Part shown: piece after piece, positions 10,661 to 28,541 of the stretch | Position numbering within the stretch: the stretch's first letter is position 1 | How the letters are laid out: each line of letters opens with the position of its first letter | IMG/VR virus record: IMGVR_UViG_3300028490_000005 | Coordinates: 1-64,000 of that record | Length of the DNA: 64,000 nucleotides | Direction: 5' to 3' (one strand) | DNA from: a virus | Notes under the pieces: model-generated | The model's input: the letters and a program-made list of their open reading frames with translations, nothing else | What the model was told of the DNA's origin: nothing | The model's database searches: none | Made by a program: the position numbers and the translations under genes

Positions 10661-11576
10661 AATTTACATAGCTGGGCATAACGGCTTAGTTGGCTCTGCG
10701 ATTAAGTCTAAATTAATAAATAACGGGTATAATAATATTATAGTTCGTACACATAATGAATTAGATTTAATGAACGCAGAAAAAGTTAGGGAGTTCTTTA
10801 AAAAGGAAAGACCAGATTACGTGTTTCTTGCCGCAGCAAAAGTGGGTGGTATATTGGCCAATTCGGAATACCCCGTTGAGTTTTTGTACAATAACTTACA
10901 AATTCAAAATAACGTGATACATAGTAGTTGGGAATTTGGGGTTAAAAAGCTATTATTTCTTGGAAGCACGTGTATCTATCCAAGAATGTGCCCTCAACCT
11001 ATGAAGGAGAGTTATTTATTAACTTCTGAATTAGAACCAACCAATGAAGCATACGCTATAGCGAAGATCGCTGGTTTGAAACTGTGTGAAAGTTTTAATA
11101 AACAACATGGTACAAATTTCGTATCAGTCATGCCAACAAACTTATATGGGATAAATGATAATTTTGATTTAAAGTCTTCACATGTTTTACCAGCATTAAT
11201 GGTAAAGATTATTGACGCCAAAAAGAACAACACTGACGTTGAAATTTGGGGAGATGGAAGTCCAATTAGGGAATTCTTATTTGTAGATGATATGGCACAA
11301 GCTTGTGTGTTTATTATGGAAACGATAAACTCTGAAGATATGCCTCACTCTTTTGTAAATATTGGTTCTTCGGAAGTGGTATCTATTGCTGAATTAGCTG
11401 AAATAATTAAAGAGGTTGTTGGGTTTAAAGGTGACTTTATTTTTGGGAGTGACACGCTTAACGGTACGCCGATAAAAATGACAGATACATCAGTGCTTTC
11501 AGAACTCGGTTGGGAAAACTCAATGAAATTAAAAGACGGAATTGAATACATATATAAAAATAGGAGTTGGGAATGA
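10644..11576 (+). CDS. fcl: GDP-L-fucose synthase
   Basis: AGHNGLVGSA, AAAKVGGI, GSTCIYP, EPTNEAYAIAK, MPTNLYG, SHVLPAL, REFLFVDD. Confidence 0.96.
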   Translation: MKLESKIYIAGHNGLVGSAIKSKLINNGYNNIIVRTHNELDLMNAEKVREFFKKERPDYVFLAAAKVGGILANSEYPVEFLYNNLQIQNNVIHSSWEFGVKKLLFLGSTCIYPRMCPQPMKESYLLTSELEPTNEAYAIAKIAGLKLCESFNKQHGTNFVSVMPTNLYGINDNFDLKSSHVLPALMVKIIDAKKNNTDVEIWGDGSPIREFLFVDDMAQACVFIMETINSEDMPHSFVNIGSSEVVSIAELAEIIKEVVGFKGDFIFGSDTLNGTPIKMTDTSVLSELGWENSMKLKDGIEYIYKNRSWE

Positions 11577-12085: not shown

Positions 12086-13264
12086 ATGAAAACAAAAGAA
12101 GCAGACATACTTTATTGTGGTGTAGACAAAGAAAAGATTAAGAACGCAAATCCGATCTTAAATGAAGAAGTCCTTGGGTATCATCACTCTTACATGACTG
12201 AACGCCATAATATTTATAAGCGTAAAGAAATTGAAAAGTTACCACAAGACGAATGGACTGAAGATGAAGTGTTTAAAAATTATAGGTTCACAAATGTCAG
12301 AAGAGAACTTGACCGTGAGTCAGTGTGGTTAATAGCTCACATTTCAGAAAATCCAAATTTTACCCTTGAAGAAAAAATACTTTGGACTATGTTATTTAGA
12401 ACTTATAATAAATCATCAACTTTCATTAAGCTCGGTTTCCCATTTGATATTGATATTTTGAAATTCGATGATTCTGATAAAGAAAACCTTAGAAAAATCA
12501 TAGAAGACGAAATAGAAAGAGACCCTAAATATGTTTGGTTCACACCCGCATTCAACACTGGTGGTCTCAAGGCTACATGGGCAATGCCTGAAACAAAGGG
12601 TATGTACGAATGTACAAGTTCAAACATAGAAGTTGAAGTTGAGACTGATGACGGTATTGAAAAGATGACTTGGCGTGAAGCTAAAGATCTTCAAAAAGAA
12701 AATCCCAATTATAATATCAAAGGTGTAGAAAAGTCTATGCCTATGCGAATGATTCACTTAATAGACTATGTCAGGAAGACAGATATAGTAGAGCGTATCA
12801 TAAATGCAGAAACTCAAGAAAAGGCTTATGATATTATCAGAGAAATTGACGGGTTTTCCAACTTCTTAGGTTATCAGATATTTGTCGACTTCACTTATAT
12901 AAAAGAATACAAGTTCAGTGAAAACGAATTTACTATTTCCGGACCAGGATGCGACAGAGGACTTGATCTTATGTTTACGGATAAAGATGGAATGGATTCT
13001 TCAGAAGCATTGTTTTGGATTAGAGATAATATTGAAGCAGAGTGGAAGAAACGGGACTTGGAATTTGACGCAGAAGTGTTATTTGACCACCTCGAGCCTG
13101 AAGACCGTTGCATTAACGTGATGATGTTGGAAAATTCATATTGTGAAATCTCAAAATTTGTCAAGGCGAAACGTGGCACAGGAAGACCTCGTAACCGTTA
13201 CCACCCCACAATTGAAAGTGATGTAATTACACCAAATGAATGTTCAATCGACGAGTGGTTATAG
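12086..13264 (+). CDS. Alpha-glutamyl/putrescinyl thymine pyrophosphorylase, clade 1 (amino acid:DNA transferase)
   Basis: ERHNIY, WTEDEVFKNYRFTNVRRELDR, LFRTYN, FLGYQIFVD, GPGCDRGL, ENSYCEISK. Confidence 0.85.
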   Translation: MKTKEADILYCGVDKEKIKNANPILNEEVLGYHHSYMTERHNIYKRKEIEKLPQDEWTEDEVFKNYRFTNVRRELDRESVWLIAHISENPNFTLEEKILWTMLFRTYNKSSTFIKLGFPFDIDILKFDDSDKENLRKIIEDEIERDPKYVWFTPAFNTGGLKATWAMPETKGMYECTSSNIEVEVETDDGIEKMTWREAKDLQKENPNYNIKGVEKSMPMRMIHLIDYVRKTDIVERIINAETQEKAYDIIREIDGFSNFLGYQIFVDFTYIKEYKFSENEFTISGPGCDRGLDLMFTDKDGMDSSEALFWIRDNIEAEWKKRDLEFDAEVLFDHLEPEDRCINVMMLENSYCEISKFVKAKRGTGRPRNRYHPTIESDVITPNECSIDEWL

Positions 13265-13300
13265 TTCGAGGGGCGTTTTTGCGAACTAAGACGTTAAATA
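13263..13300 (+). promoter_or_regulatory. Hairpin followed by putative late promoter TTAAATA
   Basis: TAGTTCG...CGAACTA inverted repeat; TTAAATA at 13294-13300. Confidence 0.45.
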
Positions 13301-13313
13301 CTTTTAAGGAGTA

Positions 13314-14075
13314 TTGATGATCTTAGAAAAACTAAAAGAACTTGGTATAGAAAAACCACAACAATTATCAAGGTTCTTTCAAAAGCATTATAGAACTGGG
13401 AAGATGCCAAAGGGGCGTGAAGAATATTATGAAGAATTGTTGGAAGCTACTAAATGGCTTCCGATAAATTCCTCATATACACATCGTTGGTTTGTTCTTG
13501 AAAACGGGCTTAAGGACTATCCTGAGTGTTGTGAGTGTGGTGAACCGATTATTTGGAGACCACAAGCACCAGATGATATTGACCGTGATGTTTGTGGGAA
13601 GAAATGTTCAGCTATAAAAAGACAGCGTGAATATGTTGATGTTTATAAATTGGCTGCCCAGAAAGGTCATAAGTCCAAAGACCAAAAGGTTATTGGTAAA
13701 AAGATTTCAGAAGCTCGGTTATCATGGGATGATGAGTTTAAGAAAGAATTAACCAAACGTGTTTTGAAGACAAAATATGACAAAGGGATTTATAAAACTG
13801 GTAGATATAAAACAGATTGGCAACATTATAAGTCATTAGTCATTGCAATTACGAGAAAGGTAGATGTAACGCAATTTGAAAACTCTGAAAAAAGAGGGAA
13901 ATGTGGTATTGACGGAGCTTACCAATTAGACCATAAAATTAGCATAGATGAGGGGTTCAAACTTGGTTTGCTGCCATATATTGTTGGGAACTCTGAAAAT
14001 TTACAGATGATTCCTTGGTTAGAAAATTCAAGAAAAAAGGCAAAACCATATAAAGAATGGTTAGAAGGAGCTTAA
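13314..14075 (+). CDS. Putative HNH-type homing endonuclease
   Basis: Cys-rich N-terminal half (CCECG, CGKKC); C-terminal YQLDHKISI...NLQMIPWLEN. Confidence 0.7.
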   Translation: MMILEKLKELGIEKPQQLSRFFQKHYRTGKMPKGREEYYEELLEATKWLPINSSYTHRWFVLENGLKDYPECCECGEPIIWRPQAPDDIDRDVCGKKCSAIKRQREYVDVYKLAAQKGHKSKDQKVIGKKISEARLSWDDEFKKELTKRVLKTKYDKGIYKTGRYKTDWQHYKSLVIAITRKVDVTQFENSEKRGKCGIDGAYQLDHKISIDEGFKLGLLPYIVGNSENLQMIPWLENSRKKAKPYKEWLEGA

Positions 14076-14076
14076 A

Positions 14077-14205
14077 ATGTTAAAAGAAGTTTTAGATAAA
14101 ATAAAAGAAGAAAATATTAGTGATCTTGGTAAAAAGTCATCAAAAACCGTGGATGCGAATAAACCAGTTTTAGACAAAAAGGTTAAAGAAAATGCAGATA
14201 AGTAG
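14077..14205 (+). CDS. 42-aa protein with MLKEVLD leader (not in ORF track)
   Basis: AAGGAG RBS; MLKEVLDKIKEENISDLGKKSSKTVDANKPVLDKKVKENADK. Confidence 0.6.
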   Translation: MLKEVLDKIKEENISDLGKKSSKTVDANKPVLDKKVKENADK

Positions 14206-14276
14206 AGGTACGGGGCGTCCTAGAAATAGATATACCCCAACAGAAGTTCAAGTCTGTGACAATGAGTGTAGTATAG

Positions 14277-14693
14277 ATGAGTGGTTATAGATTAGCTGTC
14301 GTTGGCTCCAGATACTTCGATGATTTTGAATTATTTGTCAAGGTCATGGATCGTTTAAGGTTAGTTAAAGATATTAAGGCTATAATATCAGGTGGAGCAC
14401 GGGGTGCTGACGCCATGGCTGAACATTATGCCGAAGTGAATAAAATACCATTAACAGTATTTGAAGCTGAGTGGGGCAAGTACGGAAAAGGTGCTGGTTA
14501 CATTCGCAACAAAGATATATGGGATGCTTCTGACATGGGTATAGCCTTCTGGGACGGTGAATCTAAGGGAACTGAACATTCATTTGAAATTGCTAGAAAA
14601 CAAAATAAACAATTACTTATATTTAATTATAAAAAGAATAGATGGGTAAATGAAAAAGGAGAAGAAATTGAGCAAATTAGACAAAGTAATTGA
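14277..14693 (+). CDS. SLOG/YspA-like (DUF2493) protein
   Basis: VVGSR, ISGGARGAD, W.KYGKGAGYIRN, FWDGESKGT. Confidence 0.85.
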   Translation: MSGYRLAVVGSRYFDDFELFVKVMDRLRLVKDIKAIISGGARGADAMAEHYAEVNKIPLTVFEAEWGKYGKGAGYIRNKDIWDASDMGIAFWDGESKGTEHSFEIARKQNKQLLIFNYKKNRWVNEKGEEIEQIRQSN

Positions 14694-14916
14694 AACGATT
14701 ATCATTGTAAGAGATGGTAAGTTGGGTGAGGAAGTTCTTCGCAACCCATACCATAGTGCATTTTTCATGAGACAAATGGTTGAGTACGGGTTAGAAGGGT
14801 TTCACATCTCAGTGAAAAGTGGTATTTCAGATGATGAAAAATCAGAGATCATACAAGAAACGATAGATACTTGGGACAATGAACCCACAGAAATTACAGA
14901 CTTATAAGGAAAAATA

Positions 14917-15594
14917 ATGAAAACAGAAAACACAGAAAAGGCGTTTGAAATATTAACATCAGAACAATTTAATGAAATACTAGATGCACAAATGGAACTG
15001 AATGTAAAATATTCAGGAGAAAATTGGGCAAAAGATATTCCTGATTCACATATGCTCGCAGCAGCATTTGCGGAACTTGGAGAACTACTTGAATCTGGAC
15101 CAAGAGTTGGGGATTCAGACCTTAATGGTTGGAAATGGTGGAGAGAGAATTTAGACAATGATGATAATAATTTGAAAGTAGAAGCAGTGGACATTATTCA
15201 CTTCACTTTCTCTTCACTTGCTAAAAAATATAACGATATTGATTTATTGAAAAAGCATTACGCTGAATGTTCTAATGCATACAGAACTTCTCCAAATGCA
15301 CAAAGTGATGGTGAATCAACTGGTGTAGTTTATGATTTACTCCTTTCACTTAGTGTGTTCACTGTCACGTGTTTAATTGAAGACTCAGAAAAAGAGCAAC
15401 TTATGGATATGATGGTATTCCTTGTTAATGGTTTGTGTAGATTTTCAAACATGACAGCTGATGAAATGTTCGAGTTATATGGAAAGAAAAATAAACTAAA
15501 TCACAAAAGAGTTGAGGGTGGGTACAAAACTGGGGACTATGAAAAAGTAGATTCAGACGGAAATGAAGATAACGTAAAACTTTTTGAAGATTAA
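14917..15594 (+). CDS. dut: Dimeric all-alpha dUTPase (dUTPase_2)
   Basis: ELGELLE, WKWW, VEAVDIIHF, KNKLNHKR..GY..GDY.K...EDN. Confidence 0.85.
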   Translation: MKTENTEKAFEILTSEQFNEILDAQMELNVKYSGENWAKDIPDSHMLAAAFAELGELLESGPRVGDSDLNGWKWWRENLDNDDNNLKVEAVDIIHFTFSSLAKKYNDIDLLKKHYAECSNAYRTSPNAQSDGESTGVVYDLLLSLSVFTVTCLIEDSEKEQLMDMMVFLVNGLCRFSNMTADEMFELYGKKNKLNHKRVEGGYKTGDYEKVDSDGNEDNVKLFED

Positions 15595-15652
15595 GCTTGT
15601 TTTAAGTGAACTTACGGTATAATAGAGTATATTAAAATAAAGGTTCAAAATG
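15591..15652 (+). promoter_or_regulatory. Early promoter cassette
   Basis: TTAAGCTTGTTTTAAGTGAACTTACGGTATAAT (-10 at 15618-15623). Confidence 0.8.
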
Positions 15653-15913
15653 GCAAAGTTTTTAGATATAGATGAAGTATTTGTAGCAGAAGGTGATTTA
15701 AGATCAGTTGCGACTGAAGATGGGGAAGCATTCTATCCAGATTTACAGGTGGTTGCAATTGTAGACGATGAATATTTCGCTCACCCAAAAATTTATCCTG
15801 GAGGAGTTGGAGCTTTGGCTGACGCTGAAGACTTTGCGGAAGCTATTGATGACAGAGCTGAGATCAATGCATCCATTTGGGTTAGGGTAGATGAATTCGG
15901 AAGAAGAGCGTAA
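15650..15913 (+). CDS. Highly acidic small early protein
   Basis: Behind the promoter cassette; D/E-rich. Confidence 0.65.
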   Translation: MAKFLDIDEVFVAEGDLRSVATEDGEAFYPDLQVVAIVDDEYFAHPKIYPGGVGALADAEDFAEAIDDRAEINASIWVRVDEFGRRA

Positions 15914-16244
15914 TGAGTTGTTTCTTGTACGCGATCTTGGCAGTAGCAGTTTCATTTTACCTATTGGCAGTTTTTGCCTACTGGATAAGTGAAAATTAAG
16001 TTTAAAATAGTATAATAAAATAAAAAGGTGAAAGAATGAAAAAAGAATTAAATTGGGCATGGCAAACTCCGGAGTACAATTCCCCAACATGGGATAAAGT
16101 TGACTCGGTAATTGATAATGGTTTGGCTACAGCGTTTGACAATAAGGCTGGTAATGCATTAGTGAACATTGTTGATTTCGGTATTATGAAATTAGAACAA
16201 TTTGGTGCTAAATTGGAAAATTACTTCAAAAAAGAAAGTGCTGA

Positions 16245-16774
16245 TGTCTAAAAAGATAATTGCAATTGACGTTGACTTGACTGTCGTAGACTCAGTCACC
16301 CCTTGGAAAGAGTGGTACACTGGTCTCACTGGGCACGATTTAGGTGAAATTACATCTGAAAATAATGACCTCGAAACTATGATGAAAAATCACAATGACC
16401 CTCTTCAATTCTGGCGAAAGCCTGATTTATATGACACTATGCAACCAATACCTGATGCTGTGAAATATATAAAATTGATTAAAGACCTTGGGTTTGAAGT
16501 GATATTCGTATCGGCTTGTATGGCTGAACATGAACAATCTAAGAGGTATTTTCTTCAAAGACATTTCCCTTACGCTGACGGCTTCATTTCTACTGGAGAT
16601 AAATCATATGTAAGATGTGACTATTTTGTTGATGACTATAAAAAGTATTGTAGACAAATGGTTAATAACGCAACAGTGTTCCAAATAATTACCGAATTGA
16701 ATTCTCCTTGTGATGAATTCCCTTATGTTACTTGGAAGGAAATATACGAAGTTATCGTTTCGGAGAATGAGTAG
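16245..16774 (+). CDS. HAD-family 5'(3')-deoxyribonucleotidase
   Basis: IAIDVDLTVVD, IFVSA, YFVDD; start approximate. Confidence 0.8.
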
Positions 16775-17415
16775 TGTGTGGGGTCATTGGTGTTAATATG
16801 AAAGATGTGTCTAAAGAAGATTTAGACACAATCAAACGAGTATTTTTAGAAACTGAAATTAGAGGAAAACACGCAAGTGGTATTGCTTGGTATGACGGTG
16901 AAAAAATTACTTCTCAGAAAGCACCAGTACCCATATCACAATTCATGAAAACATTCGATTTATCTAAATGTTTATATGGAGATAACCAAATAACTCTGAT
17001 AGGGCACATTCGCTACAGTACCTCGGACATAAAGTATAATCAGCCCATAGGTAATGAAGCTGGAAGTTTTATTGTTCATAACGGAGTCGTGACACAATCT
17101 GATCCAGAACATTGGGAAGAACGCTATGGTTATTCTTGTCAGACAAAAAATGATTCAGAACTATTATACCATTGTTTAGAAGAAGGATTGGATATTGAAA
17201 CTAAATTCCCAATGGCTTCATATGCTCTACTTAGGCTTACTAGAGATGGTGAAATTGAATTTGAAAGGAATGGATTACGTCCAATGTGGGAAGCCACTTT
17301 AAGTAATGGTCACATTTTCTCAAGTACAAGAGATATTTTATTCAGATCTGGTGTATCAATTGATTCACTGAAAAGAGTACAAGCCAATAACGACAAACAA
17401 CACAGGACATTCTAA
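16774..17415 (+). CDS. Class II (Ntn) glutamine amidotransferase
   Basis: N-terminal MCG, RGKHASG, GHIRYST, HNG, NDSE. Confidence 0.88.
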   Translation: MCGVIGVNMKDVSKEDLDTIKRVFLETEIRGKHASGIAWYDGEKITSQKAPVPISQFMKTFDLSKCLYGDNQITLIGHIRYSTSDIKYNQPIGNEAGSFIVHNGVVTQSDPEHWEERYGYSCQTKNDSELLYHCLEEGLDIETKFPMASYALLRLTRDGEIEFERNGLRPMWEATLSNGHIFSSTRDILFRSGVSIDSLKRVQANNDKQHRTF

Positions 17416-18407
17416 TGGATAGAAAAGACTTATTTATCGATTATTTCATAAATTCAGATAATGTGAGTGACATCGACCCAAATATTTGGATGGCGAACTA
17501 TGTAGTCGATAGGATGGAACTCAACGATGAACAGATTATATGGTTTTGTTTCTTAAATTCAATTACTTACCAATTCCCAACTTCTTACCTTTTAATTAAC
17601 GAATACCCAGATTTAGAAAATGTTGATATAGACAGATTATCGAATTGGTGGTTAGATGTGCAATCTAGGTGCCCATTTCAAACGGATAAACTCAAACAGA
17701 GGAAATTCCTACCTGAATCGATAGAAAGTTACCAGAAATTGGTGGACGGTTCCCAGAAAGAATATTTTGATAATATTCTTAATAAATCACCACAAGAAAA
17801 TTTTAGACTATTGTGGGAAGAGGTCTATGTACCAATTAGACACTTTGGTAGATTTTCAGTATGGAATTTTGCACAGATGTTAAAGCAAGTGGCTGGATAT
17901 GATATAGAACCAGATACTTTATTTCTAGGTGAAAGTAATTCGGAAAGTCACACACATGGTTTGTGTTATGCATTTGGTAAAGATGAATGGGCAAAGAAAG
18001 AACGCTATAAAGATGAAAATGGAAAGAGAAAAAAGAAAACTCATAAATTCTCAACTGAAGATAAATTGTTTTTAGAAACTGAAGCAGCAGAAATGATGGT
18101 CACTCTTAAATCAAAGGGTGCCAATGTTGATGCTTTTAATATTGAAACTGTAGCGTGTGCATTCAAGAAATTGTTCAGGGAAAGTGATAGTAGGTATGTT
18201 GGTTACTATTTAGATAGACAAGCCGAAGATATTATCAAATTAGAAAAGTTAAAATGGGACGGAGTCGATTGGTCTATTTTATGGGATGCTAGGAAAGAAT
18301 TGTTGGATAATGATTTATTATACACTACAATTCAAAAAGAAAGATTCAAAGAAGAACCAGATTCTAAGAAGTTTTCGAGTAAAAATACAATGTTGGAGTG
18401 GTTTTGA
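17415..18407 (+). CDS. aGPT-PPlase clade 2 (amino acid:DNA transferase)
   Basis: DIDP, EQ..WFCFL...TY, FQTDK, FGRFSVWNF, IETVACAFKK, RYVGYYLDRQ. Confidence 0.8.
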   Translation: MDRKDLFIDYFINSDNVSDIDPNIWMANYVVDRMELNDEQIIWFCFLNSITYQFPTSYLLINEYPDLENVDIDRLSNWWLDVQSRCPFQTDKLKQRKFLPESIESYQKLVDGSQKEYFDNILNKSPQENFRLLWEEVYVPIRHFGRFSVWNFAQMLKQVAGYDIEPDTLFLGESNSESHTHGLCYAFGKDEWAKKERYKDENGKRKKKTHKFSTEDKLFLETEAAEMMVTLKSKGANVDAFNIETVACAFKKLFRESDSRYVGYYLDRQAEDIIKLEKLKWDGVDWSILWDARKELLDNDLLYTTIQKERFKEEPDSKKFSSKNTMLEWF

Positions 18408-20500
18408 TATTTAAAATAATTAATGAAAGTGATATATTGGGTGCAATGATCCCAAATGATTATAAAAAAGATAGTTTTGCTAGAACTGTAATTAGTAAGT
18501 GCAACACATATGATTTATGGGATAAAACCTATGGATATTATGTCGGTGATGAGTTGGTTGGAATTATGATAACTACATTTACAAAGAGAAATCCAATAAC
18601 TGCTAATTTACAAATTCTATTCACATATTATAGGTATAGAGGAAACGGTTATGCCAAAGCAATGGTTTTAGAAACTATCCGACAAGCACATGAATATGGT
18701 TGTGAATACTATAGGGTGTCATCAGAAGCTAGTGCAGTAGAATTCTATGAAAAAATTGGCTTTAAATTTTTCTGTAAACAAAAAAGTGGGACACAGTTAA
18801 GTATTTTTAAAGTTAATAATAGTATAATAGAGGATAAAGATTTTATCCGAGATGAAAATATGGATAAAATGTATTTCAGAAAAGGTAAAGGTGGTTGTGT
18901 GGAAATTTTAGGTGAATATAAAAAAGAGGATTTATCTTTCGGTACGGAATTGGAATTTTCGAATATACCGAAGAGTAAAGAGGTTCCCAAAGAGTTGGGA
19001 AAATGGGAATATTCTGAACTTGATGTTGTAAATACTAAGGGTGAATATGCATTTAAGTGTGCAGACCCTCGAGGTACAGAAGTTCCAGTCGGTGGGGAAA
19101 TTAATACAATTCCATCAAAAAACTTTGTTGATCAAGTTGATAAAATTATGAATATCATAAAATATTTTAAGGAAGATGATGTTGATGTTGGATTAACCGC
19201 ACACACTCATTTACACGTACATATAGATGGTATCGAAGATGATCCGGAAGCATTAGCAAGGTTAGTGAATTATATCTACGATAATCAGGAAACTACCTTG
19301 CGAGAATGTTATGCGTTCAATGAAGATATAATTCCAAAGGAAAAAAGGTTTTCAAAAATTAAAAGGTATCTGAAATTTGATGGTGGGAGACCTTTACCTG
19401 AATGGTTCAAGGATAACGCAGTTGATAATGTTGACACATTCGACGGCTTCTTAGACGCTATTGGTTGGGGGATTAAAAAAGAACCAATTAGATATCAACG
19501 GTATCACATTAATTTACATGCTTTGAAAAATTCAAAGACAATAGAATTCAGGTGTTTCAGGGGATCTTTGGACGAAACTGAGTATTTGGATATGTTTGCA
19601 TTTGTTCAGGAGTTTATCCTTAATGGGTTGAACGGTGGTGACTCTGTTCAGGAAATATTAAACAAACGAGACTATAAATTTCCTCGGATGCAATTTAACG
19701 AAGATCAGGCGATTGGTTGGCAAGATACGAAATATGATTCAAATAGATGTGGTAAGAAGAATAGAGAATATTGGCAAGCAGATAAAGCTTCTGAAAAAAT
19801 ATATGAAATGAAGAAAAAGGAGAAAATTATGGGAAATTTACATTTAATAAATTATATGGGTGCAAACGGTGTCGGGAAGTCTACTAGAACTTTTCATTTA
19901 GTGGATTACATGAAAAATACCATGGATTTTACTGAATTCAAATATGGCATTACACGTAAAGGTAATGATGAAAAGGAAGAAACTATCGGGTTGTTATTTG
20001 AAAATGGTTGGTTAGTTCTTGGTAAATTTTCTAAAGAGAATACTCAATGGGTTTCACTTGATTCAGCCATTTTAAGCAAGTGGGAACATCGTATTGCCTT
20101 CATAGAAGACATGTCCAAAAGGGGTGAAATTAAGGTAGTGTTCATGGAAGGGTATTTCAATAACAGAAGTCGCCAATCATCCCCTGAGAATTTAAAGGCT
20201 CACGGGGTTTCCAAAGTGGAAATTCTAACTTCATATTATAATGATATATCAGAATTTATTGACAGAACTAATGGTAGAACTGGAAAGAATAGAGGGATGG
20301 AATGGGCTGAACAATCTCCTGGATGGAATGATAATAAATTATTCGACAAACTATACAATGAATTTATAGAAGAGGTTAATGAGTCTGCTATAGTCGAAAG
20401 AATTGATATAAACTCACCCCGTGACACATTGGTCAATAGGTTTTTTGATAAGAGTTATGTCAAGAAAGAAGAAGTAAATGTAATGGATGAATGGTTGTAA
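18398..20500 (+). CDS. Fusion: GNAT acetyltransferase + amidoligase (COOH-NH2 ligase) + P-loop kinase (5hmdU DNA kinase-like)
   Basis: YRGNGYAK / AVEFYEKIGF; SFGTELEF, GGEIN, HTHLHVH, TIEFR; MGANGVGKST. True start may be TTG 18404. Confidence 0.8.
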   Translation: MVLIFKIINESDILGAMIPNDYKKDSFARTVISKCNTYDLWDKTYGYYVGDELVGIMITTFTKRNPITANLQILFTYYRYRGNGYAKAMVLETIRQAHEYGCEYYRVSSEASAVEFYEKIGFKFFCKQKSGTQLSIFKVNNSIIEDKDFIRDENMDKMYFRKGKGGCVEILGEYKKEDLSFGTELEFSNIPKSKEVPKELGKWEYSELDVVNTKGEYAFKCADPRGTEVPVGGEINTIPSKNFVDQVDKIMNIIKYFKEDDVDVGLTAHTHLHVHIDGIEDDPEALARLVNYIYDNQETTLRECYAFNEDIIPKEKRFSKIKRYLKFDGGRPLPEWFKDNAVDNVDTFDGFLDAIGWGIKKEPIRYQRYHINLHALKNSKTIEFRCFRGSLDETEYLDMFAFVQEFILNGLNGGDSVQEILNKRDYKFPRMQFNEDQAIGWQDTKYDSNRCGKKNREYWQADKASEKIYEMKKKEKIMGNLHLINYMGANGVGKSTRTFHLVDYMKNTMDFTEFKYGITRKGNDEKEETIGLLFENGWLVLGKFSKENTQWVSLDSAILSKWEHRIAFIEDMSKRGEIKVVFMEGYFNNRSRQSSPENLKAHGVSKVEILTSYYNDISEFIDRTNGRTGKNRGMEWAEQSPGWNDNKLFDKLYNEFIEEVNESAIVERIDINSPRDTLVNRFFDKSYVKKEEVNVMDEWL

Positions 20501-21075
20501 TGGATATATTTGATCTACTGAGAACTGAAGTAATTGTACACGACGACGAAATTTCAGAACATGTTGCATTCAAGGTAAAAGAAATTCAGGGTAACAACCA
20601 AACATTTGGTCGTGACCAAATGACAATGGAAAACCATGTGAAAAGTGGTTCAATTCTCGAGATAGGGCTTGCTAAGTTAATTGATGGAGTTGTTAATCCA
20701 AATCTATTCGATTCAAGTGATCCTGAAAGCTTTGCTTGGGATGTTGAAAAAGGTGGTGTTAGGTTTGAAGTCAAATCATCACCAAAGGCAGATTCTTGGT
20801 TTAATTTTAATCTCCATGGTGTTGAGAATAGTTCTAATGAAACACTAACCAGAGTTAATTTAACAACTTTTCTGAAATATTCATCATATTCTAATTTCAT
20901 TATCGCTGGGTATTATACTGAAAGTGGTAGTGGTTATGTTGTGAAGTTTAAGTGGTTGATGAAATCACTCACATTTCAAAATTATGTTAAAAAGTCTAGA
21001 GCTTCTGGAAAGGGGACTACTAATTATTATGATATCGTCAGTTCGAAGAGAAATTTGGATTGTTTCGAACTTTAA
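20500..21075 (+). CDS. Possible PD-(D/E)xK nuclease
   Basis: G.ILE...WDVEKGGVRFEVK spacing; TAATG-coupled to the fusion gene. Confidence 0.45.
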   Translation: MDIFDLLRTEVIVHDDEISEHVAFKVKEIQGNNQTFGRDQMTMENHVKSGSILEIGLAKLIDGVVNPNLFDSSDPESFAWDVEKGGVRFEVKSSPKADSWFNFNLHGVENSSNETLTRVNLTTFLKYSSYSNFIIAGYYTESGSGYVVKFKWLMKSLTFQNYVKKSRASGKGTTNYYDIVSSKRNLDCFEL

Positions 21076-21104
21076 GATTGTTTTAAGTTAAATTACGCTA
21101 TAAT
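21071..21104 (+). promoter_or_regulatory. Sigma70-type promoter
   Basis: TTTAAGATTGTTTTAAG...GCTATAAT. Confidence 0.75.
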
Positions 21105-21128
21105 ATACGAAATAAAGAAGGGTAAATT

Positions 21129-22286
21129 ATGATAAGAGAACTAGACGCAAAATCCGAGAAAAATAAGAAAAGATTAATAAAGTTACTCAATGACGATATT
21201 GTATTGGTTGCCGATGAAAATAAAATTTGTAGGTTGAGAACTAAGGATTTAGAATGTGTTGATGGTGAAATTTCCACAGCTGAATTCCATAAACAAAAAT
21301 CACATGATATTTTTATTAATGAATCACTTTGGTACATATACTTCATCAATAAAGACAAAAAAGAATTTGGTATTAAATTCAACAGCCAATCAGACGCAGT
21401 TTCCTTTTGGTATAAAGAAGTATTCAATGTAGATGATGCGACTTTTGTGACTGTAGTTGCTACAGAGACAGCTAATGAAGAGAGAGTGAAAATAGTTTTG
21501 GAAAACAACAAATCATATTCATTCACTGAAAGATTGATGTCAAATAGTGGTGAAGAAGCTAGAGCATATAAATTCTATTCACATAAATTGGATGAGTACG
21601 CTATAATTTCGAAAGATAATTTAAAAGATAATTGTGAGACATTGGATTTAGATGATCATTTACCAGCTGAATATCTATTTTGTGTGGAATATGAAAGAAT
21701 TTTTAACATAAGCCTTGATTATAGAAATATCATCTCACTTGAATATGTCAATAAAGATGGTCAAAAATTGGCTACTTTTAAGGACGGTTCTTCATATAAA
21801 TATAACCAGTCTCAATTACATCGAAATAATAACTTTCCAATTATGTCATATATGAATTTTGGCTCAGAAGAATTTAAATCTCTTGTTTGTAGAATTACTG
21901 GACATAGATTTTTCAATGACAGTAAAATCCTAAAACATCAAAATTATTCTGCTAAATTTAGTGCTGATTTTCACCACATGTTAGTTATTGATGGTGCAAG
22001 CGTACATAAGATTAGTAAAGAACCTTCTGCACTATTAAACGGTAAAATGAATGACCAAATATTCTTTGAATTGTTGTTTTGTACTATGATTTCTGGTTAC
22101 GCTCATAAAGATTACCATTCAAAAGCTAGGAATATGAAGTTAAGTGATTACTATGAAGAACATTTACCGTTACACGTAGTGAGTGAGAGCCACTACTACA
22201 TTACTCATAAGAAATATGGATTTGTACCGAGACTTACTTGGCACGAGTTTAGACAAGCATTGGAAGGGGTATTAACAATTGATTAA
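21129..22286 (+). CDS. Hypothetical protein (385 aa)
   Basis: Long ORF with its own promoter; no recognised motif. Confidence 0.7.
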   Translation: MIRELDAKSEKNKKRLIKLLNDDIVLVADENKICRLRTKDLECVDGEISTAEFHKQKSHDIFINESLWYIYFINKDKKEFGIKFNSQSDAVSFWYKEVFNVDDATFVTVVATETANEERVKIVLENNKSYSFTERLMSNSGEEARAYKFYSHKLDEYAIISKDNLKDNCETLDLDDHLPAEYLFCVEYERIFNISLDYRNIISLEYVNKDGQKLATFKDGSSYKYNQSQLHRNNNFPIMSYMNFGSEEFKSLVCRITGHRFFNDSKILKHQNYSAKFSADFHHMLVIDGASVHKISKEPSALLNGKMNDQIFFELLFCTMISGYAHKDYHSKARNMKLSDYYEEHLPLHVVSESHYYITHKKYGFVPRLTWHEFRQALEGVLTID

Positions 22287-22538
22287 TTTACTTGGGCAAA
22301 AGGATTGGGGTGTTGGATACATAAAGCAATGTAGGAATGATCAAGTGAAGGTGGAAATCGAAGATTACATAAACAAATTGTCATCTGGGTTTAAATATGA
22401 TTATGATATATCTGATATACAAATACATAAGATTAACGATTCTATGTATTGTTCAGTTTGGTTTTCATATTCTAGAACCAAATAATTAAGTCTCCTTTAA
22501 GGTTTTACAGATATAATAAAACAAAAAGGAGACTATGT

Positions 22539-23648
22539 TTGAAACCAACATTAATAAACGGAAAAAGTATAAATGAGGTCGTATTCAATTCACTGGATAG
22601 ACTTATTCATAACGGATACCGAACAAAATCAAGAAACGGTGATATTAACACCGTGTATAACGCATTTGTCACTCTAGACAATCCCAAGGCAAGACACCTT
22701 TCATTAGAAGGGCGTAAAAACAACATATTCGCAACAATAGCCGAGACTTTCTGGGTATTCGCTGGTTCTAATGATATAGACCCTTATTTGAGCTTCTTTC
22801 TACCAAGAGCTAAAGACTTTTCAGATGACGGTAAAACATGGCGTGGTGGTTATCCTGAGCGTATTTTCGCGAATGAACAAATCGACGATGTCATTGAACA
22901 ATTTAGAAACGAGGGTATTCATACCAGACGAGCAGTTATGGTAATTTCAGACCCAAGCCTTGATACAAGGGTGGCACTTGATAAGGTGTATGGACTTGAA
23001 ACAACTAAAGATAGACCATGCAATATGATTATTGACTTCTTTATTACACCAGACAAACGATTACACATGAACGTGAAATCAAGATCAGGTGATGTAATTT
23101 GGGGATTTGGATCAATTAATATTTTTGAATGGACTTTCCTTCAAGAAATGATTTTAGGTTATATCCAAGATGAAATTGACCCTGATGTAACACTCGGAGA
23201 ATACAACCATCACGTGACGAATTTACACCTTTATGACTTCAATGGCTCACAAGGTTACGATGTAGTAAGAAATAAGCTTGAACAGAAGTTAGGGTTAAAT
23301 GCTGATGACAAAATTGAATTCCCAGTTATTGAAGAAGTACATGAGTTCTTTAAAGAACTTGTAAATATGTATAGTAAATGTATCACCTCTCCGGAGTTAC
23401 CAGATTTTGGTAGAGATATACTTGATATGAACTTCATTTTCGATAAATATAGAGTTCCTCAAACAGATAATATCTTGTATGAATATGCTTGTTTGGTTTT
23501 AGCGTATATTATGCAAAAACGCCATAAGTTAGCAGAAGAAGATTTCTTCCTCTTAATAGACCTCAAAGCATCTGACGAATTCTTCCATTGTATAGAAAGT
23601 TCACCGTTCAAGAAGTTTGAAATTGAAAGAGTAACGGGGAATCATTAA
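22539..23648 (+). CDS. Thymidylate synthase family, probable dUMP hydroxymethylase
   Basis: AETFWVFAGSND, TRRAV, catalytic PCN, RSGDVIWG..IN (Asn at the dUMP-specificity position), NLHLY. Confidence 0.8.
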   Translation: MKPTLINGKSINEVVFNSLDRLIHNGYRTKSRNGDINTVYNAFVTLDNPKARHLSLEGRKNNIFATIAETFWVFAGSNDIDPYLSFFLPRAKDFSDDGKTWRGGYPERIFANEQIDDVIEQFRNEGIHTRRAVMVISDPSLDTRVALDKVYGLETTKDRPCNMIIDFFITPDKRLHMNVKSRSGDVIWGFGSINIFEWTFLQEMILGYIQDEIDPDVTLGEYNHHVTNLHLYDFNGSQGYDVVRNKLEQKLGLNADDKIEFPVIEEVHEFFKELVNMYSKCITSPELPDFGRDILDMNFIFDKYRVPQTDNILYEYACLVLAYIMQKRHKLAEEDFFLLIDLKASDEFFHCIESSPFKKFEIERVTGNH

Positions 23649-23863
23649 TGGAAATTTATGAAATCACAATTAATGATGAAGTTTTTGTTAGTATGGATAC
23701 GGATTACGAAGGCACAATCGATACTGTAATTCTTGAGAATAATCTATATGGTAAGAATAAATTCCTAAGAAAAGAATTCTTTCATAGATTTACTGAAGAT
23801 GGACCAGAAAAAATAACACGGATAGAAATGTCTAAAATTTTAATTCACAGTGAGGATAATTAG

Positions 23864-24685
23864 ATGACAAGTTGGGAAATGATTGAACGAAACGCAAAAG
23901 AAGTTAGAGAGAACGGGTATTATATTCAAAGAGGTATGCTTTCAAATTTAGATATTGAATGTATCCTTGACGTAACAATTCCTGCAATAGCTAATAATTA
24001 TACAGAAGAATATGTAGAAAAGCGTTTGTATAGAAAACGCGAGAATACTGAAGGGAGACAAGGCGATGCTGTATTAATGTCTATTGGTACACCAGATACA
24101 GCACCATTCATGTCGCTAGATGATAGATTCCCTTGTATTGGTGGGTTGTACTTAAGTTACGTGAACACATTAAGTCAACTCCTTTATGGTGATTTTAGAC
24201 TTGAAGATAATACAAAAGTTCTTGTAAATTATCAACAATACAAAGAAGGGGCAAGTAATTCTTTACCTTTCCACTTTGACGCTGAGATTTTCAAGGGTGA
24301 TTGGAACAAAGACTACATTAAGCTTGAAGAAGGGCTTATCCCTAGAATGGTAATGGTGGTTGTGCTTGAAAATGAAAATGATGGTAAGGGCTTACAAATC
24401 ATGACACCAAAGGGTGACATCATTGATTTAGACCTTGTTCCTGGAGACATTTTATATTTCGATAATACGGCTGTTCTACATGGTGTACCAGATGATCTTG
24501 ATAAAAAGCGTACAATGATTGGTTTCAGAAGTTTTGAAACTGAACCACTTTTATTCAATAAACTTGGGTTTATGGATGGAACGGGTGTTATTGAGATTGA
24601 TACACCATATGTCAAGGGTGAAGCGATTGAACTTACTACTGAAAACGCAAAAGAAGAACTAATAAGAGAAGGATGGTATTATTAA
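23864..24685 (+). CDS. 2OG-Fe(II) dioxygenase
   Basis: N.Q.Y, HFD (HxD), LHGV, distal R (KRTMIGFR). Confidence 0.75.
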   Translation: MTSWEMIERNAKEVRENGYYIQRGMLSNLDIECILDVTIPAIANNYTEEYVEKRLYRKRENTEGRQGDAVLMSIGTPDTAPFMSLDDRFPCIGGLYLSYVNTLSQLLYGDFRLEDNTKVLVNYQQYKEGASNSLPFHFDAEIFKGDWNKDYIKLEEGLIPRMVMVVVLENENDGKGLQIMTPKGDIIDLDLVPGDILYFDNTAVLHGVPDDLDKKRTMIGFRSFETEPLLFNKLGFMDGTGVIEIDTPYVKGEAIELTTENAKEELIREGWYY

Positions 24686-24867
24686 TGAAAAAGTATAAAT
24701 ATTCAAAGTTGGTAGAGAAGGACATTGTTAAGAGATGTCCTTCTTGTGAGGGTTCTGGGCGTTGGTATGGTCATGGAGCATTCGGTGAACCAGAAAGTGA
24801 TACGTGTGGCAGATGTCGTGGTGAAGGTGTTATATTAAATTGGGATAATATTAATCGGGAAAAATGA
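24685..24867 (+). CDS. Small DnaJ-type zinc finger protein
   Basis: CPSCEGSG ... CGRCRGEG. Confidence 0.65.
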   Translation: MKKYKYSKLVEKDIVKRCPSCEGSGRWYGHGAFGEPESDTCGRCRGEGVILNWDNINREK

Positions 24868-25072
24868 TGATTGAAATTAATGATGTGAGACAACTTGACC
24901 AATTAAAAATCGGTGCTGATTTTAAGCTAGTCAGTGGGTTGAATATCCTCATCACCGATACGGGAATGAATTTAATCTTCATAGAAACTGAACATCTAAC
25001 CATAAAGGCGTTCCCACTTGGGGAAGGCATGTATAGATTTAAAGATAAACAAATAAACATTTAGGAAAAATA

Positions 25073-25615
25073 ATGATAAATATAAATTTTTTTGGTGGAC
25101 CTGGAACGGGAAAATCAACAACATCAACTGGAGTTTTCCATGCTATGAAAAAAGAAGGGTATAGTGTCGAATACGTTTCGGAATATGCTAAAGACCTTGT
25201 TTACAGTAAAGATTATTTCAAACTCAAAGATCAATTAATGATTTTGGCTAACCAATCTCATCCTTGGTTCAAATTAGAAGAACAAGTGGACTTTACTATT
25301 AATGATGGACCATTTCTTCTTGGGTTAGTATATTTACAAGACAACCCGCATATGCCAACTGAAGAGTTTAAAGCGTTCTTGGTAGCGATGTGGAATTCAT
25401 ATACCCACATTAACATATTCATTGAAAGAGACGTAGAAGCTCACGGTTATCAAGAATATGGGCGTGGTCAAACATTAGCAGAAGCTGTTGAAAAAGATAA
25501 CGAAATCAAACAAATCCTTTATGATAACAATATACCGTTCTTTTCAGTTGTGATGGGTGATGACACGGTTCAATATGCTCTTGATATTATTAAAGATTTG
25601 AAAAGGGGTAAATAA
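25073..25615 (+). CDS. P-loop nucleotide kinase-like (AAA_28/NadR-like)
   Basis: GGPGTGKST, EYVSEYAK, YQEYGR.Q. Confidence 0.75.
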   Translation: MININFFGGPGTGKSTTSTGVFHAMKKEGYSVEYVSEYAKDLVYSKDYFKLKDQLMILANQSHPWFKLEEQVDFTINDGPFLLGLVYLQDNPHMPTEEFKAFLVAMWNSYTHINIFIERDVEAHGYQEYGRGQTLAEAVEKDNEIKQILYDNNIPFFSVVMGDDTVQYALDIIKDLKRGK

Positions 25616-26167
25616 ATGGAAACAATTAAAATAGCGTTCATGGGTGTCAGTGGTAGTGGTAAAGATTACATTGTAGATGTAGCAAAAAAGAATTTCGAAT
25701 TCACGAGGTTCAGTTTCTCTGACCAACTAAAGAAATTGGGTGCTAAAATATACCCATGGTTGGAAAGTGATTATCCACCAGAAGAAAAGGAAAAGTCACT
25801 TAATATTAAGATTCCTGAGACTGGTGAAGTAATTACTAAATCACCAAGGGAAATTTGGCTAGAACTTAATAAAATGAGAAATGTAGAAGATAACTTATTT
25901 GTCAGGATGTTGGCTCATGAAATTTGGTTGACACAAGTTGACCGTCTAGTAATATCTGATATTAGAACGCAAAATGAATATGATTGGTGTGTGGAAAATG
26001 ATTTTACTATCATCGCCATAAAAGGGGATGCCAAACACCCTGAAAACTCATTTGATGACTGGGTTAGAGACATGATAGACATGGGTGAATATGATTTTGA
26101 ATTTACTAATGAATTTGATGGTCATGAAAAGATTGAGACTTTCTTTACAAGTTGCTTCGACCTTTAA
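25616..26167 (+). CDS. Deoxynucleoside monophosphate kinase (T4 gp1-like)
   Basis: GVSGSGKD, SFSDQLK, SPRE, ISDIR..NE. Confidence 0.8.
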   Translation: METIKIAFMGVSGSGKDYIVDVAKKNFEFTRFSFSDQLKKLGAKIYPWLESDYPPEEKEKSLNIKIPETGEVITKSPREIWLELNKMRNVEDNLFVRMLAHEIWLTQVDRLVISDIRTQNEYDWCVENDFTIIAIKGDAKHPENSFDDWVRDMIDMGEYDFEFTNEFDGHEKIETFFTSCFDL

Positions 26168-27477: not shown

Positions 27478-27648
27478 GACATAGATCTTACAGACGGAAA
27501 ACGTTTATTTATAGACACTAAAGGGCTTGGAGAAATCTTAATTAAAGAAACTTCAAAAGGCTTAGAAATCTCTGCTACCAACGCTTCAATTTTAATTAAG
27601 CCACGTGGAGAAAACGCAATCACCATTATCAATCAGGAGATAGAATGA
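27475..27648 (+). CDS. 57-aa hypothetical protein (not in ORF track)
   Basis: AAAGGCTTAAAATG leader; MDIDLTDGKRLFIDTKG...; ATGA overlap with thg1. Confidence 0.65.
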   Translation: MDIDLTDGKRLFIDTKGLGEILIKETSKGLEISATNASILIKPRGENAITIINQEIE

Positions 27649-28541
27649 AATCAAAATTTGAAACATTAGGTGATAGACTCAAAGACTATGAAGCTCAATA
27701 TGAATATTATATTTGGTCAGATAAACATATTGTAGTACGAATTGACGGGCACAAGTTCTCAAAGTATACTAAGGGGTTCAAGCGACCATTTGACGAAATT
27801 CTTTCAAAAGCTATGGAACAAACGACTATTGATTTGGTTCAAGAGTTTCAAGCCGTTGTAGGATATACACAAAGCGATGAAATTACATTAGTAATTCCTT
27901 CACCGAAGCCTAAAAAAGTTCATTACAACAAGTTACCTTCACAAGATTTGAAGCACACGTATTCAGGTAGAATTCAGAAGATTGCTTCATTAACTGCGGG
28001 GTTCGCTACTATGGCGTTCAACAGACATTTATTATCTCTTTACAAAGAACAAAAAATATTAGAGAAGGATTTAGATCAAACTCACGGAATAGAATACAGA
28101 AGGGAATTTGGGAAATATATGAATACTATTGAGGGCAAACTTGGCAAGGCTTGGTTTGATTCCCGTGTTTACGCTGTACCAAACGACGTAGAAGCGTTCA
28201 ACTCTGTTCTATGGCGAGTTAGGGATGCAGAAAAGAACAGCCGTTCAATGTTCGCTCAGGCTCATTGTAGTCACAAGGCACTTCAAAACATGTCTGGTAG
28301 AGAGCAAGTAGATTTCTGTAAGGAAACGACGGGTGAAGATTGGGATCTTGTTGATGATAGATATAAGTACGGAATTCTCGTAAAGAAAGAGAAGTACATG
28401 AAAGCTGTTGATTTCGACCAAAATGATACAGTGTATGAAGGTCCAGAAGAAGTTGAAAGAACTCGGTTGGTTTCATTTAGTAAACATCTAGTATTCAGCG
28501 AAGAAAACGTTGAATTGATTATGAGTAAGTATAAAGGATAA
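27645..28541 (+). CDS. thg1: tRNA(His) guanylyltransferase Thg1-like protein
   Basis: RIDGHKFSKYT, KRPFD, YTQSDEITL, GRIQK, FDSR. Confidence 0.9.
   Translation: MKSKFETLGDRLKDYEAQYEYYIWSDKHIVVRIDGHKFSKYTKGFKRPFDEILSKAMEQTTIDLVQEFQAVVGYTQSDEITLVIPSPKPKKVHYNKLPSQDLKHTYSGRIQKIASLTAGFATMAFNRHLLSLYKEQKILEKDLDQTHGIEYRREFGKYMNTIEGKLGKAWFDSRVYAVPNDVEAFNSVLWRVRDAEKNSRSMFAQAHCSHKALQNMSGREQVDFCKETTGEDWDLVDDRYKYGILVKKEKYMKAVDFDQNDTVYEGPEEVERTRLVSFSKHLVFSEENVELIMSKYKG

Follow-up and report, generated by a model that had tools for sequence, protein, structure and literature searches.

Here, we describe a gene region of the IMG/VR virus record IMGVR_UViG_3300028490_000005, an 82,337-bp sequence estimated to be ~53% complete, of which the first 64 kb (64,000 nucleotides; the window) were analyzed. 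Between positions 12086 and 26167 the window carries genes that are best explained as a two-stage pathway of thymidine hypermodification, in which thymine would be replaced by 5-hydroxymethyluracil (5-hmU; 5-hmdU as the deoxynucleoside) and then decorated on the DNA. The GC content is ~33% and all substantial open reading frames (ORFs) of the region lie on the + strand. A chain of overlapping genes runs from an NT5C/HAD 5'-deoxynucleotidase (16202..16774) through a glutamine amidotransferase (GATase; 16774..17415), an amino-acid:DNA transferase (AADT; 17415..18407) and a 700-aa fusion of GNAT acetyltransferase, amidoligase and 5-hmdU DNA kinase domains (18398..20500) to a DenB-like nuclease (20491..21075). 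The stop codon of NT5C overlaps the GATase start in TAGTG at 16772-16776, the GATase stop and the AADT start share TAATG at 17413-17417, and 10-nt overlaps join the AADT gene to the fusion gene (18398-18407) and the fusion gene to the DenB-like gene (20491-20500). These junctions confirm the translational coupling of GATase, AADT and fusion that had been proposed in an earlier reading of the DNA letters (the original prediction). The genes listed there were all found in place on the + strand by ORF calls, Pfam and PHROG, and its general proposal, a 5-hmdU-based pathway with an unusual tailoring set of GATase, GNAT and amidoligase, is supported. It had also stated that neither pyridoxal phosphate (PLP) decarboxylases nor radical SAM enzymes are visible in the window; the 82-kb record (~53% of the genome) yielded no radical SAM enzyme, PALP-type PLP enzyme, DAO-type flavoenzyme, PanD, Tet/JBP or HMUD1 kinase. 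ORF calls and hidden Markov models (HMMs) were made ad hoc for this analysis.

The GATase is a stand-alone class II, N-terminal nucleophile (Ntn) protein of 213 aa that matches GATase_6 at 31.9 bits (cut-off 27). It begins, from a GTG start codon, with M-C-G, and M-C-[GA] opens every full-length homologue found. Cys2 and the motifs IRGxHA, HxRYSTS, HNG and ND.E are invariant in 26 homologues; among the invariant positions are H102-N103-G104, R80 (within HxRYSTS) and N126-D127. From what is known of PurF and GlmS, we take HNG to be the oxyanion Asn-Gly, and R80 and D127 to hold the carboxylate and amine of glutamine. Judged by these motifs, the family keeps all the hallmarks of a glutaminase. 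A profile search of 1.84 billion representative proteins returned 314 clusters at E<=1e-30, nearly all of them stand-alone proteins of 200-255 aa, with four longer ones. A tblastn search of INPHARED with the GATase found no phage above 30% identity.

The AADT, of a family formerly named aGPT-Pplase2, matches ADDT (PF18724) at 2e-16 (60.9 bits against 26.2) and belongs to a GATase-linked clade. Its earlier assignment to clade 2 of the aGPT-PPlases is supported by the GenBank label of the ViI gp247 orthologue (Ackermannviridae), 'aGPT-Pplase2 domain-containing protein'. Identity to the structurally characterized transferase PUGT is below what BLAST or HMMER detect: a profile of the clade gave nothing significant against the PDB sequences, hhalign aligned only the N-terminal DxDP...RMEL motif, and the kinship is drawn from motifs aligned with MAFFT and from structure. 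D21, E244, T245 and C248 of the window AADT align with D24, E243, T244 and C247 of PUGT and are invariant in 88 of 88 members of the clade. In PUGT, D24 contacts the amine of glycine, E243 and T244 are metal ligands, and C247 clamps the base together with one other side chain. W146 and K150 are named in the PUGT paper as the two residues that hold glycine; both are kept in the glycine transferases PaMx11 gp46 and M6 gp51. The window AADT has F147 and N151 in their place, and its clade F/Y and N/F. Replacement of the glycine-binding residues fits a nucleophile that has no carboxylate, although it is not proof of one. INPHARED holds no AADT with more than 30% identity to that of the window. That neither the GATase nor the AADT has an INPHARED relative above 30% identity may explain why virion DNA of this type has not yet been analyzed.

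The 700-aa fusion protein opens with the GNAT domain (18398..18907; Acetyltransf_10, 5e-9, 36.6 bits against 23.6, residues 43-125), in which an acetyl-CoA loop, RGNGYA, is visible (R/Q-x-x-G-x-G/A); related GNATs occur in the amidoligase-bearing cassettes. The central domain (18908..19837) is a probable Amidoligase_2, a glutamine-synthetase-like carboxylate-amine ligase. Within the whole protein its match to PF12224 stays below the cut-off of 22, at 19.2 bits; the domain alone reaches 22.4 bits, over the last 36 profile residues only. PF12224 is matched by 7 of 18 amidoligase homologues, and two homologues stand clearly above the cut-off (39.2 bits, 9e-10, for L002:10681-11616 on a related IMG/VR contig, L002; 33.7 bits for P0143, a natural fusion protein discussed below), and BLAST ties the window domain to these at 4e-19. 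GxExE, GGE, HxH, R..N and TxEFR are invariant in the 18 sequences, and from knowledge of the superfamily we take these motifs to be metal and ATP ligands. An amidoligase profile found no significant solved relative among the PDB sequences. The C-terminal domain (19838..20500) is 5-hmdU DNA kinase 2 (HMUD2; PF18747, 29.7 bits against 25, residues 483-679) with GANGVGKST as its Walker A motif, and stand-alone HMUD2 kinases occur in L002 and in a further IMG/VR contig, L003. Such fusions are rare, with only eight related proteins among 5.8 billion; tblastn of the fusion against cultured phages found only phage Simon, at 25% over the ligase part, and a DNA-level search with the cassette gave no match among cultured phages. 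The shared polypeptide argues that GNAT, ligase and kinase would all act on the polymer. The fusion, folded without an alignment, gave a pLDDT of 35, and this model was not used. Separately, the fusion may start at TTG 18404 and not at GTG 18398, since GGAG lies at 18394-18397, 6 nt upstream of the TTG; the database copy of the protein has 698 aa. A C-terminal tail of the form acidic-E-W-[LFIM] is common to five window proteins: HMUDK_hel (...SIDEWL; see below), AADT (...MLEWF), the fusion (...MDEWL), and two proteins outside the cassette region at 7521-8699 (...MEEWM) and 40823-41917 (...MDEWI). The tail is also found in the L002 and L003 orthologues and in the fusion protein P0179, and not in AADTs of other lineages.

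The cassette is set in genes that would supply 5-hmdU. The thymidylate synthase (TS)-superfamily enzyme (22539..23648, +; Thymidylat_synt 34.9 bits, phrog_3676 1e-85) has as its only solved relatives at E<=0.01 the entries of the CMP hydroxymethylase MilA (8e-13), with no TS at E 0.01. It has Asn in GSINIF where the cytosine-specific MilA has Asp, in agreement with the dUMP-type Asn reported in the original prediction, and it keeps the conserved Cys in DRPCN. Its relatives are found in Ackermannviridae, in M6-like phages and in phages of Bacillus; the known hmU phages ViI, M6 and SPO1 are members of these groups. The enzyme is most likely a dUMP hydroxymethylase that supplies 5-hmdUMP. The all-alpha pyrophosphatase dUTPase_2 (14917..15594, +; PF08761, 7e-17; also in L002, L003, L005 and L008) would remove dUTP/dTTP from the nucleotide pool, the NT5C protein (PF06941, 8e-13) that opens the coupled run is a putative dTMPase-type nucleotidase, and the dNMP-kinase-like protein (25616..26167, +) would convert 5-hmdUMP to 5-hmdUDP. 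The last of these has weak P-mevalo_kinase and DNMK matches, and its distant counterpart L108:13899-14567 (dNMPk HMM, 3e-7) is a DNMK at 2.9e-9. The HMUDK_hel protein (12086..13264, +; PF18723, 1e-58; phrog_2396, 7e-73; also in L002, L003, L005 and L008) is a paralogue of the DNA transferase with a putative role in the pathway. PF18723 appears to be the former aGPT-Pplase clade 1 under a new name, because SP10 gp186C, listed as aG/PT-PPlase1 in a 2018 paper, is the domain fused to the SP10 kinase.

L002 and L003 share with the window, at 45-75% identity, a backbone of HMUDK_hel, a SLOG protein, dUTPase_2, NT5C, the TS-like enzyme, a 2-oxoglutarate (2OG)-oxygenase-like protein, AAA_28 and the dNMP kinase. 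What differs between the three is the segment between NT5C and the TS-like gene, which constitutes a swappable cassette. In L002 this segment holds PanD (aspartate decarboxylase, 1e-47) directly upstream of the GATase, followed by AADT and, as separate proteins, an HMUD2 kinase and an Amidoligase_2, with no GNAT; in L003 it holds a ViI-gp247-like AADT of 411 aa, a 596-aa HMUD1-kinase fusion and an HMUD2 kinase, with neither GATase nor ligase. The 2OG-Fe(II) oxygenase-like protein (23864..24685, +; weak TauD match, 0.004; in L002, L003, L005 and L006) shows an HxD...H...R pattern, and its look-alikes in the Atlas, at 0.92-0.95, are clusters of 2OG-Fe oxygenases, HalD and PhyH. The AAA_28 P-loop NTPase/kinase-like protein (25073..25615, +; PF13521, 6e-8) occurs in L002, L003 and L005. 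Both genes track the TS-like and dNMP kinase genes and are present in relatives that have no GATase or amidoligase (L003, L005, L006); because they are kept where GATase and ligase are missing, as in L003, they are part of the backbone and not of the tailoring cassette. The suggestion that the final base is perhaps also hydroxylated thus gains no specific support, the oxygenase-like gene following the nucleotide-metabolism backbone. As an aside, an intein that carries an HNH endonuclease splits the TS-like gene of L002 (12835-14907; Intein_splicing 6e-15, HNH_3 5e-13), and the window copy is uninterrupted.

To learn what the GATase accompanies, loci were collected with an alignment of the AADT clade (58 loci) and with one of the GATases (the 80 top-scoring among at least 552 viral contigs of IMG/VR, many of them close relatives), and their ORFs were scored with HMMs from the window, L002 and L003; an earlier GATase-seeded locus scan, from an alignment of two sequences, recovered only L002. 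Marine metagenome contigs (TARA and marine ENA assemblies) are among the relatives obtained. Among the AADT-seeded loci with enough upstream sequence, a GATase is present in 30 of 32 non-redundant loci, adjacent to or overlapping the AADT in 21 of the 30. Conversely, an AADT lies within the flank in 73 of 79 GATase-seeded loci; these 73 reduce to 58 non-redundant loci, each of which was judged (58/58), and the six loci that lack it are contigs that end too early. The amidoligase is present in only 7/32 AADT-seeded and 27/58 GATase-seeded loci. The GATase is therefore a near-universal partner of the AADT clade, with or without amidoligase. A synteny survey had been suggested for GATase, transferase and amidoligase together; over ~90 non-redundant loci, the link between GATase and AADT held and that of the amidoligase as a constant third member did not.

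By the Pfam and PHROG matches of neighboring genes, two cassettes dominate, Tet/JBP-GATase-GNAT-AADT-kinase and Tet/JBP-GATase-amidoligase-GNAT-AADT-kinase. Versions with a TS-like enzyme, as in the window, also occur, as do bare GATase-AADT pairs, which have DHH, lysin and terminase genes around them and lack a nearby ligase or other synthetase (L010, L013, L050). The kinase that follows the AADT belongs to phrog_800, a family labelled 'terminase small subunit', a label that is also carried by the proven kinases of 5-hmdU DNA (5-HMUDKs) M6 gp54 and PaMx11 gp49. When 92 AADTs were placed in a quick maximum-likelihood tree (IQ-TREE), those from cassettes that have the amidoligase were interleaved with those from cassettes that lack it, and some AADTs of the two types are near-identical; gain and loss of the ligase takes 8 changes by parsimony, of which well-supported branches force at least 5. 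Since near-identical AADTs are interleaved in this way, the ligase is probably a plug-in, and the transferase step the same in both cassette types.

Several of these loci carry further genes. Glycosyltransferase or TET-associated-glycosyltransferase-like genes are found in some GATase-AADT cassettes (L011 2204-3148, L114 8668-9465, L097 11360-12406), a hint that these phages glycosylate some of their 5-hmU. A gene for an SbmA/BacA-like inner-membrane transporter (5e-77) lies at L027 5504-6547, two genes 3' of the AADT on a phage-like contig, and ORFs of similar size (by size only) occupy the same relative place in L036 and L039. Between GNAT and AADT, a subset of amidoligase-bearing Tet/JBP cassettes has a conserved ORF of ~440 aa that matches nothing in Pfam or PHROG (L108 10135-11466, also L130 and L085).

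The close link between GATase and AADT extends to natural fusions. Pfam identifies GATase-ADDT fusions in P0179 and P0264, and AADT motifs in the sequence identify a third in P0266; in all three the glutaminase is N-terminal and the acceptor domain C-terminal. P0179, folded with AlphaFold2 (AF2) from an alignment of fusions, GATases and AADTs, gave a model with a mean pLDDT of 88.4 and a pTM of 0.82, in which only the linker (225-248) and the tail are disordered. Its N-terminal domain, with pLDDT >90 over most of its length, aligns best with PurF by VIA-align (Z 23.9, rmsd 2.8, 214 aligned residues, 25-26% identity), followed by the glutaminase domain of GlmS (Z 23.4) and by EgtC (Z 21.1, at 11-12% identity). 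Residues 259-546 match PUGT (8z2m) with Z 18.8 and rmsd 3.4 over 254 of 287 residues. An AlphaFold check of each domain had been proposed, and for this homologue it returned the Ntn and PUGT-like folds. The fusions, together with the pTM of 0.82, are at most suggestive of ammonia passing to the AADT, and the GATase is the probable ammonia donor of the AADT, as read from motifs, synteny and fusions.

These data lead us to the following model. Stage 1, which we deduce from the families of the enzymes and from what is known about hmU phages, would precede replication: the TS-like enzyme would make 5-hmdUMP, which the dNMP kinase would phosphorylate, and dUTPase_2 and NT5C would deplete dUTP and dTTP/dTMP, so that DNA would be synthesized with 5-hmdU. 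Stage 2 would take place on the polymer. The HMUD2 domain of the fusion would turn 5-hmdU into its phosphorylated form, 5-PmdU, as the 5-HMUDK class does in M6 (gp54), ViI (gp67/gp243) and SP10 (gp186) (PMC8989533). The AADT would then form a Cys-C6 adduct and an exocyclic methylene intermediate of the kind that was shown for M6 gp51 and that is trapped even by borohydride and beta-mercaptoethanol (PMC8989533). We infer that ammonia released from glutamine, by a GATase docked on the AADT, would attack this intermediate to give 5-aminomethyl-dU, a step that would copy the logic of PurF, whose N-terminal Ntn glutaminase supplies the ammonia that displaces a leaving group of phosphate type. More speculatively, the primary amine of 5-aminomethyl-dU may, as a first or an alternative step, be coupled by the amidoligase and ATP to an amino acid or a carboxylic acid, and the GNAT may acetylate the amine that remains, to give a charge-neutral N-acyl(amino)methyl-dU. 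In the commoner sister cassettes, which consist of GATase, GNAT, AADT and kinase, acetylation would lead to 5-acetamidomethyl-dU without glycine or an FAD (flavin adenine dinucleotide) lyase. In L002, the acid joined by the amidoligase may be beta-alanine, as suggested by PanD directly upstream of the GATase and by the lack of a GNAT. We give an even chance to the sequence of events proposed for the window, that is, ammonia from the GATase yielding 5-aminomethyl-dU and the amidoligase and GNAT acylating it to an undescribed N-acyl(amino)methyl-dU. The broader formulation, which we hold tentatively and at a little under even chances, is that GATase and AADT would together form a 'DNA amidotransferase' that uses ammonia from glutamine to aminate phosphorylated 5-hydroxymethyluracil in duplex DNA, with 5-aminomethyl-dU as a hub from which GNAT would lead to 5-acetamidomethyl-dU and the amidoligase to N-acyl- or aminoacyl-aminomethyl uracils (e.g. 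beta-alanyl where PanD is present). The final base of the window phage is probably undescribed, and to that extent the original prediction of a hypermodified thymidine not described before probably stands.

A number of observations weigh against direct delivery of ammonia to the DNA. The products are assigned from gene content alone. In the commonest cassette the GATase gene lies directly 5' of the amidoligase gene and overlaps it, P0143 is a GATase-Amidoligase_2 fusion, and LUZ24-like phages without an AADT carry distant pairs of GATase and Amidoligase_2; AADT and amidoligase might both be served by the GATase. Stand-alone Ntn domains can be gamma-glutamyl hydrolases, as the EgtC match recalls, and the alignment behind the P0179 model was unpaired except for the three fusions. 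The replacement at the K150 position is not specific, given that the ViI-like serine transferase also has N there. Lastly, PaMx11 gp48, the 5-NmdU acetyltransferase, weakly matches the GNATs of amidoligase-bearing and not those of amidoligase-free cassettes, and because of this resemblance an order of ligase first and acetylation afterwards is not a neat fit. Kinship of gp48 with the amidoligase-free GNATs would have pointed to direct acetylation of 5-aminomethyl-dU in those cassettes; the weak match was to the ligase-bearing side instead.

The original prediction had the GATase and amidoligase carboxamidate the transferred amino acid: the AADT would attach a free amino acid by its amine, the amidoligase would activate its carboxylate with ATP for conversion to a carboxamide by GATase ammonia, and the GNAT would N-acetylate it, giving a neutral N-alpha-(acetyl)aminoacyl-amide thymidine. 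The four activities do lie in one coupled run of the window, GATase and Amidoligase_2 recur together (the P0143 fusion, the gene overlap of Tet-type cassettes, the LUZ24-like phages), and characterized AADTs transfer glycine, serine or putrescine (PMC8989533). A GATase that feeds the ligase, however, should be absent where there is no ligase, and its presence there makes carboxamidation less likely. The GATase follows the AADT with or without ligase, and would be idle in many ligase-free cassettes (GATase-AADT alone, GATase-GNAT-AADT-kinase); its fusions to AADT, in at least three clusters, would be left unexplained, interleaved and near-identical AADTs in both cassette types make different nucleophiles unlikely, and the glycine-binding residues of PUGT are not kept. 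We consider carboxamidation unlikely. The near-identity of the AADTs speaks equally against a route in which amidoligase, GATase and GNAT build a free amine (an N-acetyl amino-acid amide or a gamma-glutamyl amine) that a promiscuous AADT transfers to 5-PmdU, ligase-free cassettes using ammonia or another amine, for here too near-identical enzymes would need different nucleophiles. The AADT intermediate accepts varied nucleophiles, PanD in L002 shows that supply of a small-molecule precursor is possible, and the SbmA/BacA-like transporter lies near the AADT in L027, yet GNAT and amidoligase are fused to a DNA-base kinase with the common EW tail, which points to the polymer as their substrate; pre-assembly of the amine is, in our estimate, rather improbable.

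The likeness of the GATase to EgtC, which is likewise a stand-alone domain and equals it in fold and size, raises a different role, that of an Ntn amidohydrolase trimming gamma-glutamyl from a DNA adduct (a gamma-glutamyl-cysteine or glutathione thiol, or an amide made by the amidoligase), after which the GNAT would acetylate the freed amine. Beta-mercaptoethanol does add to the AADT intermediate, and the neighbors of Amidoligase_2 (PF12224) are said to be enzymes that cleave gamma-glutamyl groups. However, identity over the same fold is 25-26% to PurF and 11-12% to EgtC, not all hosts can provide a gamma-glutamyl thiol, and an N-terminal glutaminase in the fusions is the order of true amidotransferases, so that we regard a hydrolase as highly improbable. 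Finally, GNAT, GATase and amidoligase are generic metabolic folds, and the cassette could act on free nucleotides, protein or a cell-wall precursor, with the 5-hmdU gene neighborhood a coincidence; given the strict link to AADT, 5-HMUDK and a 5-hmU source (TS-like or Tet/JBP) in ~90 non-redundant loci, and the fusions to AADT and to the DNA-base kinase, a non-DNA target is hardly credible. Our favored reading remains the delivery of glutamine-derived ammonia to the phosphorylated base.

The modification genes have further neighbors. The DenB-like protein at the end of the overlap chain is an endonuclease IV homologue (phrog_1360, 8e-11); its gene also adjoins the HMUD2 kinase, on the 3' side, in L003, and modified DNA may be spared by this nuclease. 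Next to it, a 385-aa protein (21129..22286, +) is matched by nothing in Pfam, PHROGs or the Atlas; L002 encodes a counterpart of 27% identity in the equivalent position (L002:11670-12770, BLAST 6e-14), and L003 has none. Upstream of the modification genes, at 9635-11576, are a GDP-mannose 4,6-dehydratase (3e-127) and an NAD-dependent epimerase/reductase, a GDP-fucose-type sugar pathway that is kept in L002, and 3' of them, at 27645-28541, is a protein of the Thg1-like tRNA-His guanylyltransferase family (2e-28).

The gene association itself has been reported, so that the synteny is not unrecognized. In IMG/VR2 and GOV2 contigs, Lee et al. 2021 noted that 5-HMUDK and aGPT-Pplase2 genes have Pfam amidoligase and glutaminotransferase domains as neighbors, with 'functions not yet known' (PMC8989533), and a 2026 PNAS paper on T-dioxygenases described ParB-dependent enzymes as 'consistently linked' with GATases, P-loop kinases and AADTs, giving no function (PMC13229309). 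In our literature search, neither a function for the GATase nor the identity of the base turned up in any paper. Thymidine hypermodifications protect phage DNA from restriction enzymes and other nucleases and are a source of enzymes for functionalized DNA. All AADTs characterized so far use a cellular amino acid or polyamine. A glutamine-coupled AADT, if our model is correct, would be a new entry route in which a primary amine is set directly on DNA; it would explain the gene association seen in the two papers and give a likely product for hundreds of environmental phage contigs (at least 552 in IMG/VR), and with the amidoligase step, ATP-dependent amide ligation would be seen on a DNA base for the first time.

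Among known systems, PaMx11 gp46-gp49 (PUGT, FAD lyase, GNAT gp48 and 5-HMUDK) resembles the window cassette in its kinase, in the fold and the D/E/T/C residues of its AADT, and in its GNAT, and 5-aminomethyl-dU and an N-acetylated neutral side chain are the predicted intermediate and end point, respectively, of the window pathway as well. The base deduced for PaMx11 is 5-acetamidomethyl-dU, reached via glycine and the FAD lyase. PaMx11 differs in having this FAD-dependent glycinyl-thymine lyase (gp47), whereas no DAO-family match is found in the 82-kb record of the window (~53% complete); the window cassette, in turn, has W146 and K150 replaced, an obligate GATase partner, an added amidoligase, and GNAT, ligase and kinase in one 700-aa protein. 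The Tet/JBP metavirome cassettes (Fig. 2 of Lee et al. 2021; the 5mYOX neighborhoods of the 2026 PNAS paper) draw on the same families of GATase, AADT, GNAT and amidoligase (HMM 1e-35 to 1e-80). There T is oxidized in the DNA, while the window phage would make 5-hmdU before replication with a TS-like hydroxymethylase; the kinase is of the phrog_800/HMUD1 type there and of the HMUD2 type here; and the order GATase-ligase-GNAT-AADT-kinase contrasts with GATase-AADT-[GNAT+ligase+kinase] in the window.

Other systems share single elements with the cassette. In the LUZ24-like set (GATase and Amidoligase_2, with COOH-NH2 ligase and ATP-grasp), the same two Pfam families adjoin in the early region and the GATase is 25-30% identical, but it has 486 aa with an extra C-terminal part, and no AADT, kinase or hydroxymethylase accompanies it. 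Gat-QueC of phage 9g likewise places a glutamine amidotransferase domain in phage DNA hypermodification (dG+; PMC6884629), although its substrate is a 7-deazaguanine nitrile, handled by a domain of the QueC type, and it is unrelated to AADT/5-hmdU chemistry. The closest parallel to the proposed chemistry is PurF, an Ntn glutaminase with Cys1 that is the best structural match and the one of highest identity, and in which glutamine ammonia displaces a phosphate-type group from an activated carbon, as we propose for the window enzymes. The acceptor of the window system, however, would be a DNA enzyme with the helix-hairpin-helix glycosylase fold in place of the phosphoribosyltransferase of PurF, its parts are usually separate proteins, and its substrate would be a base in duplex DNA.

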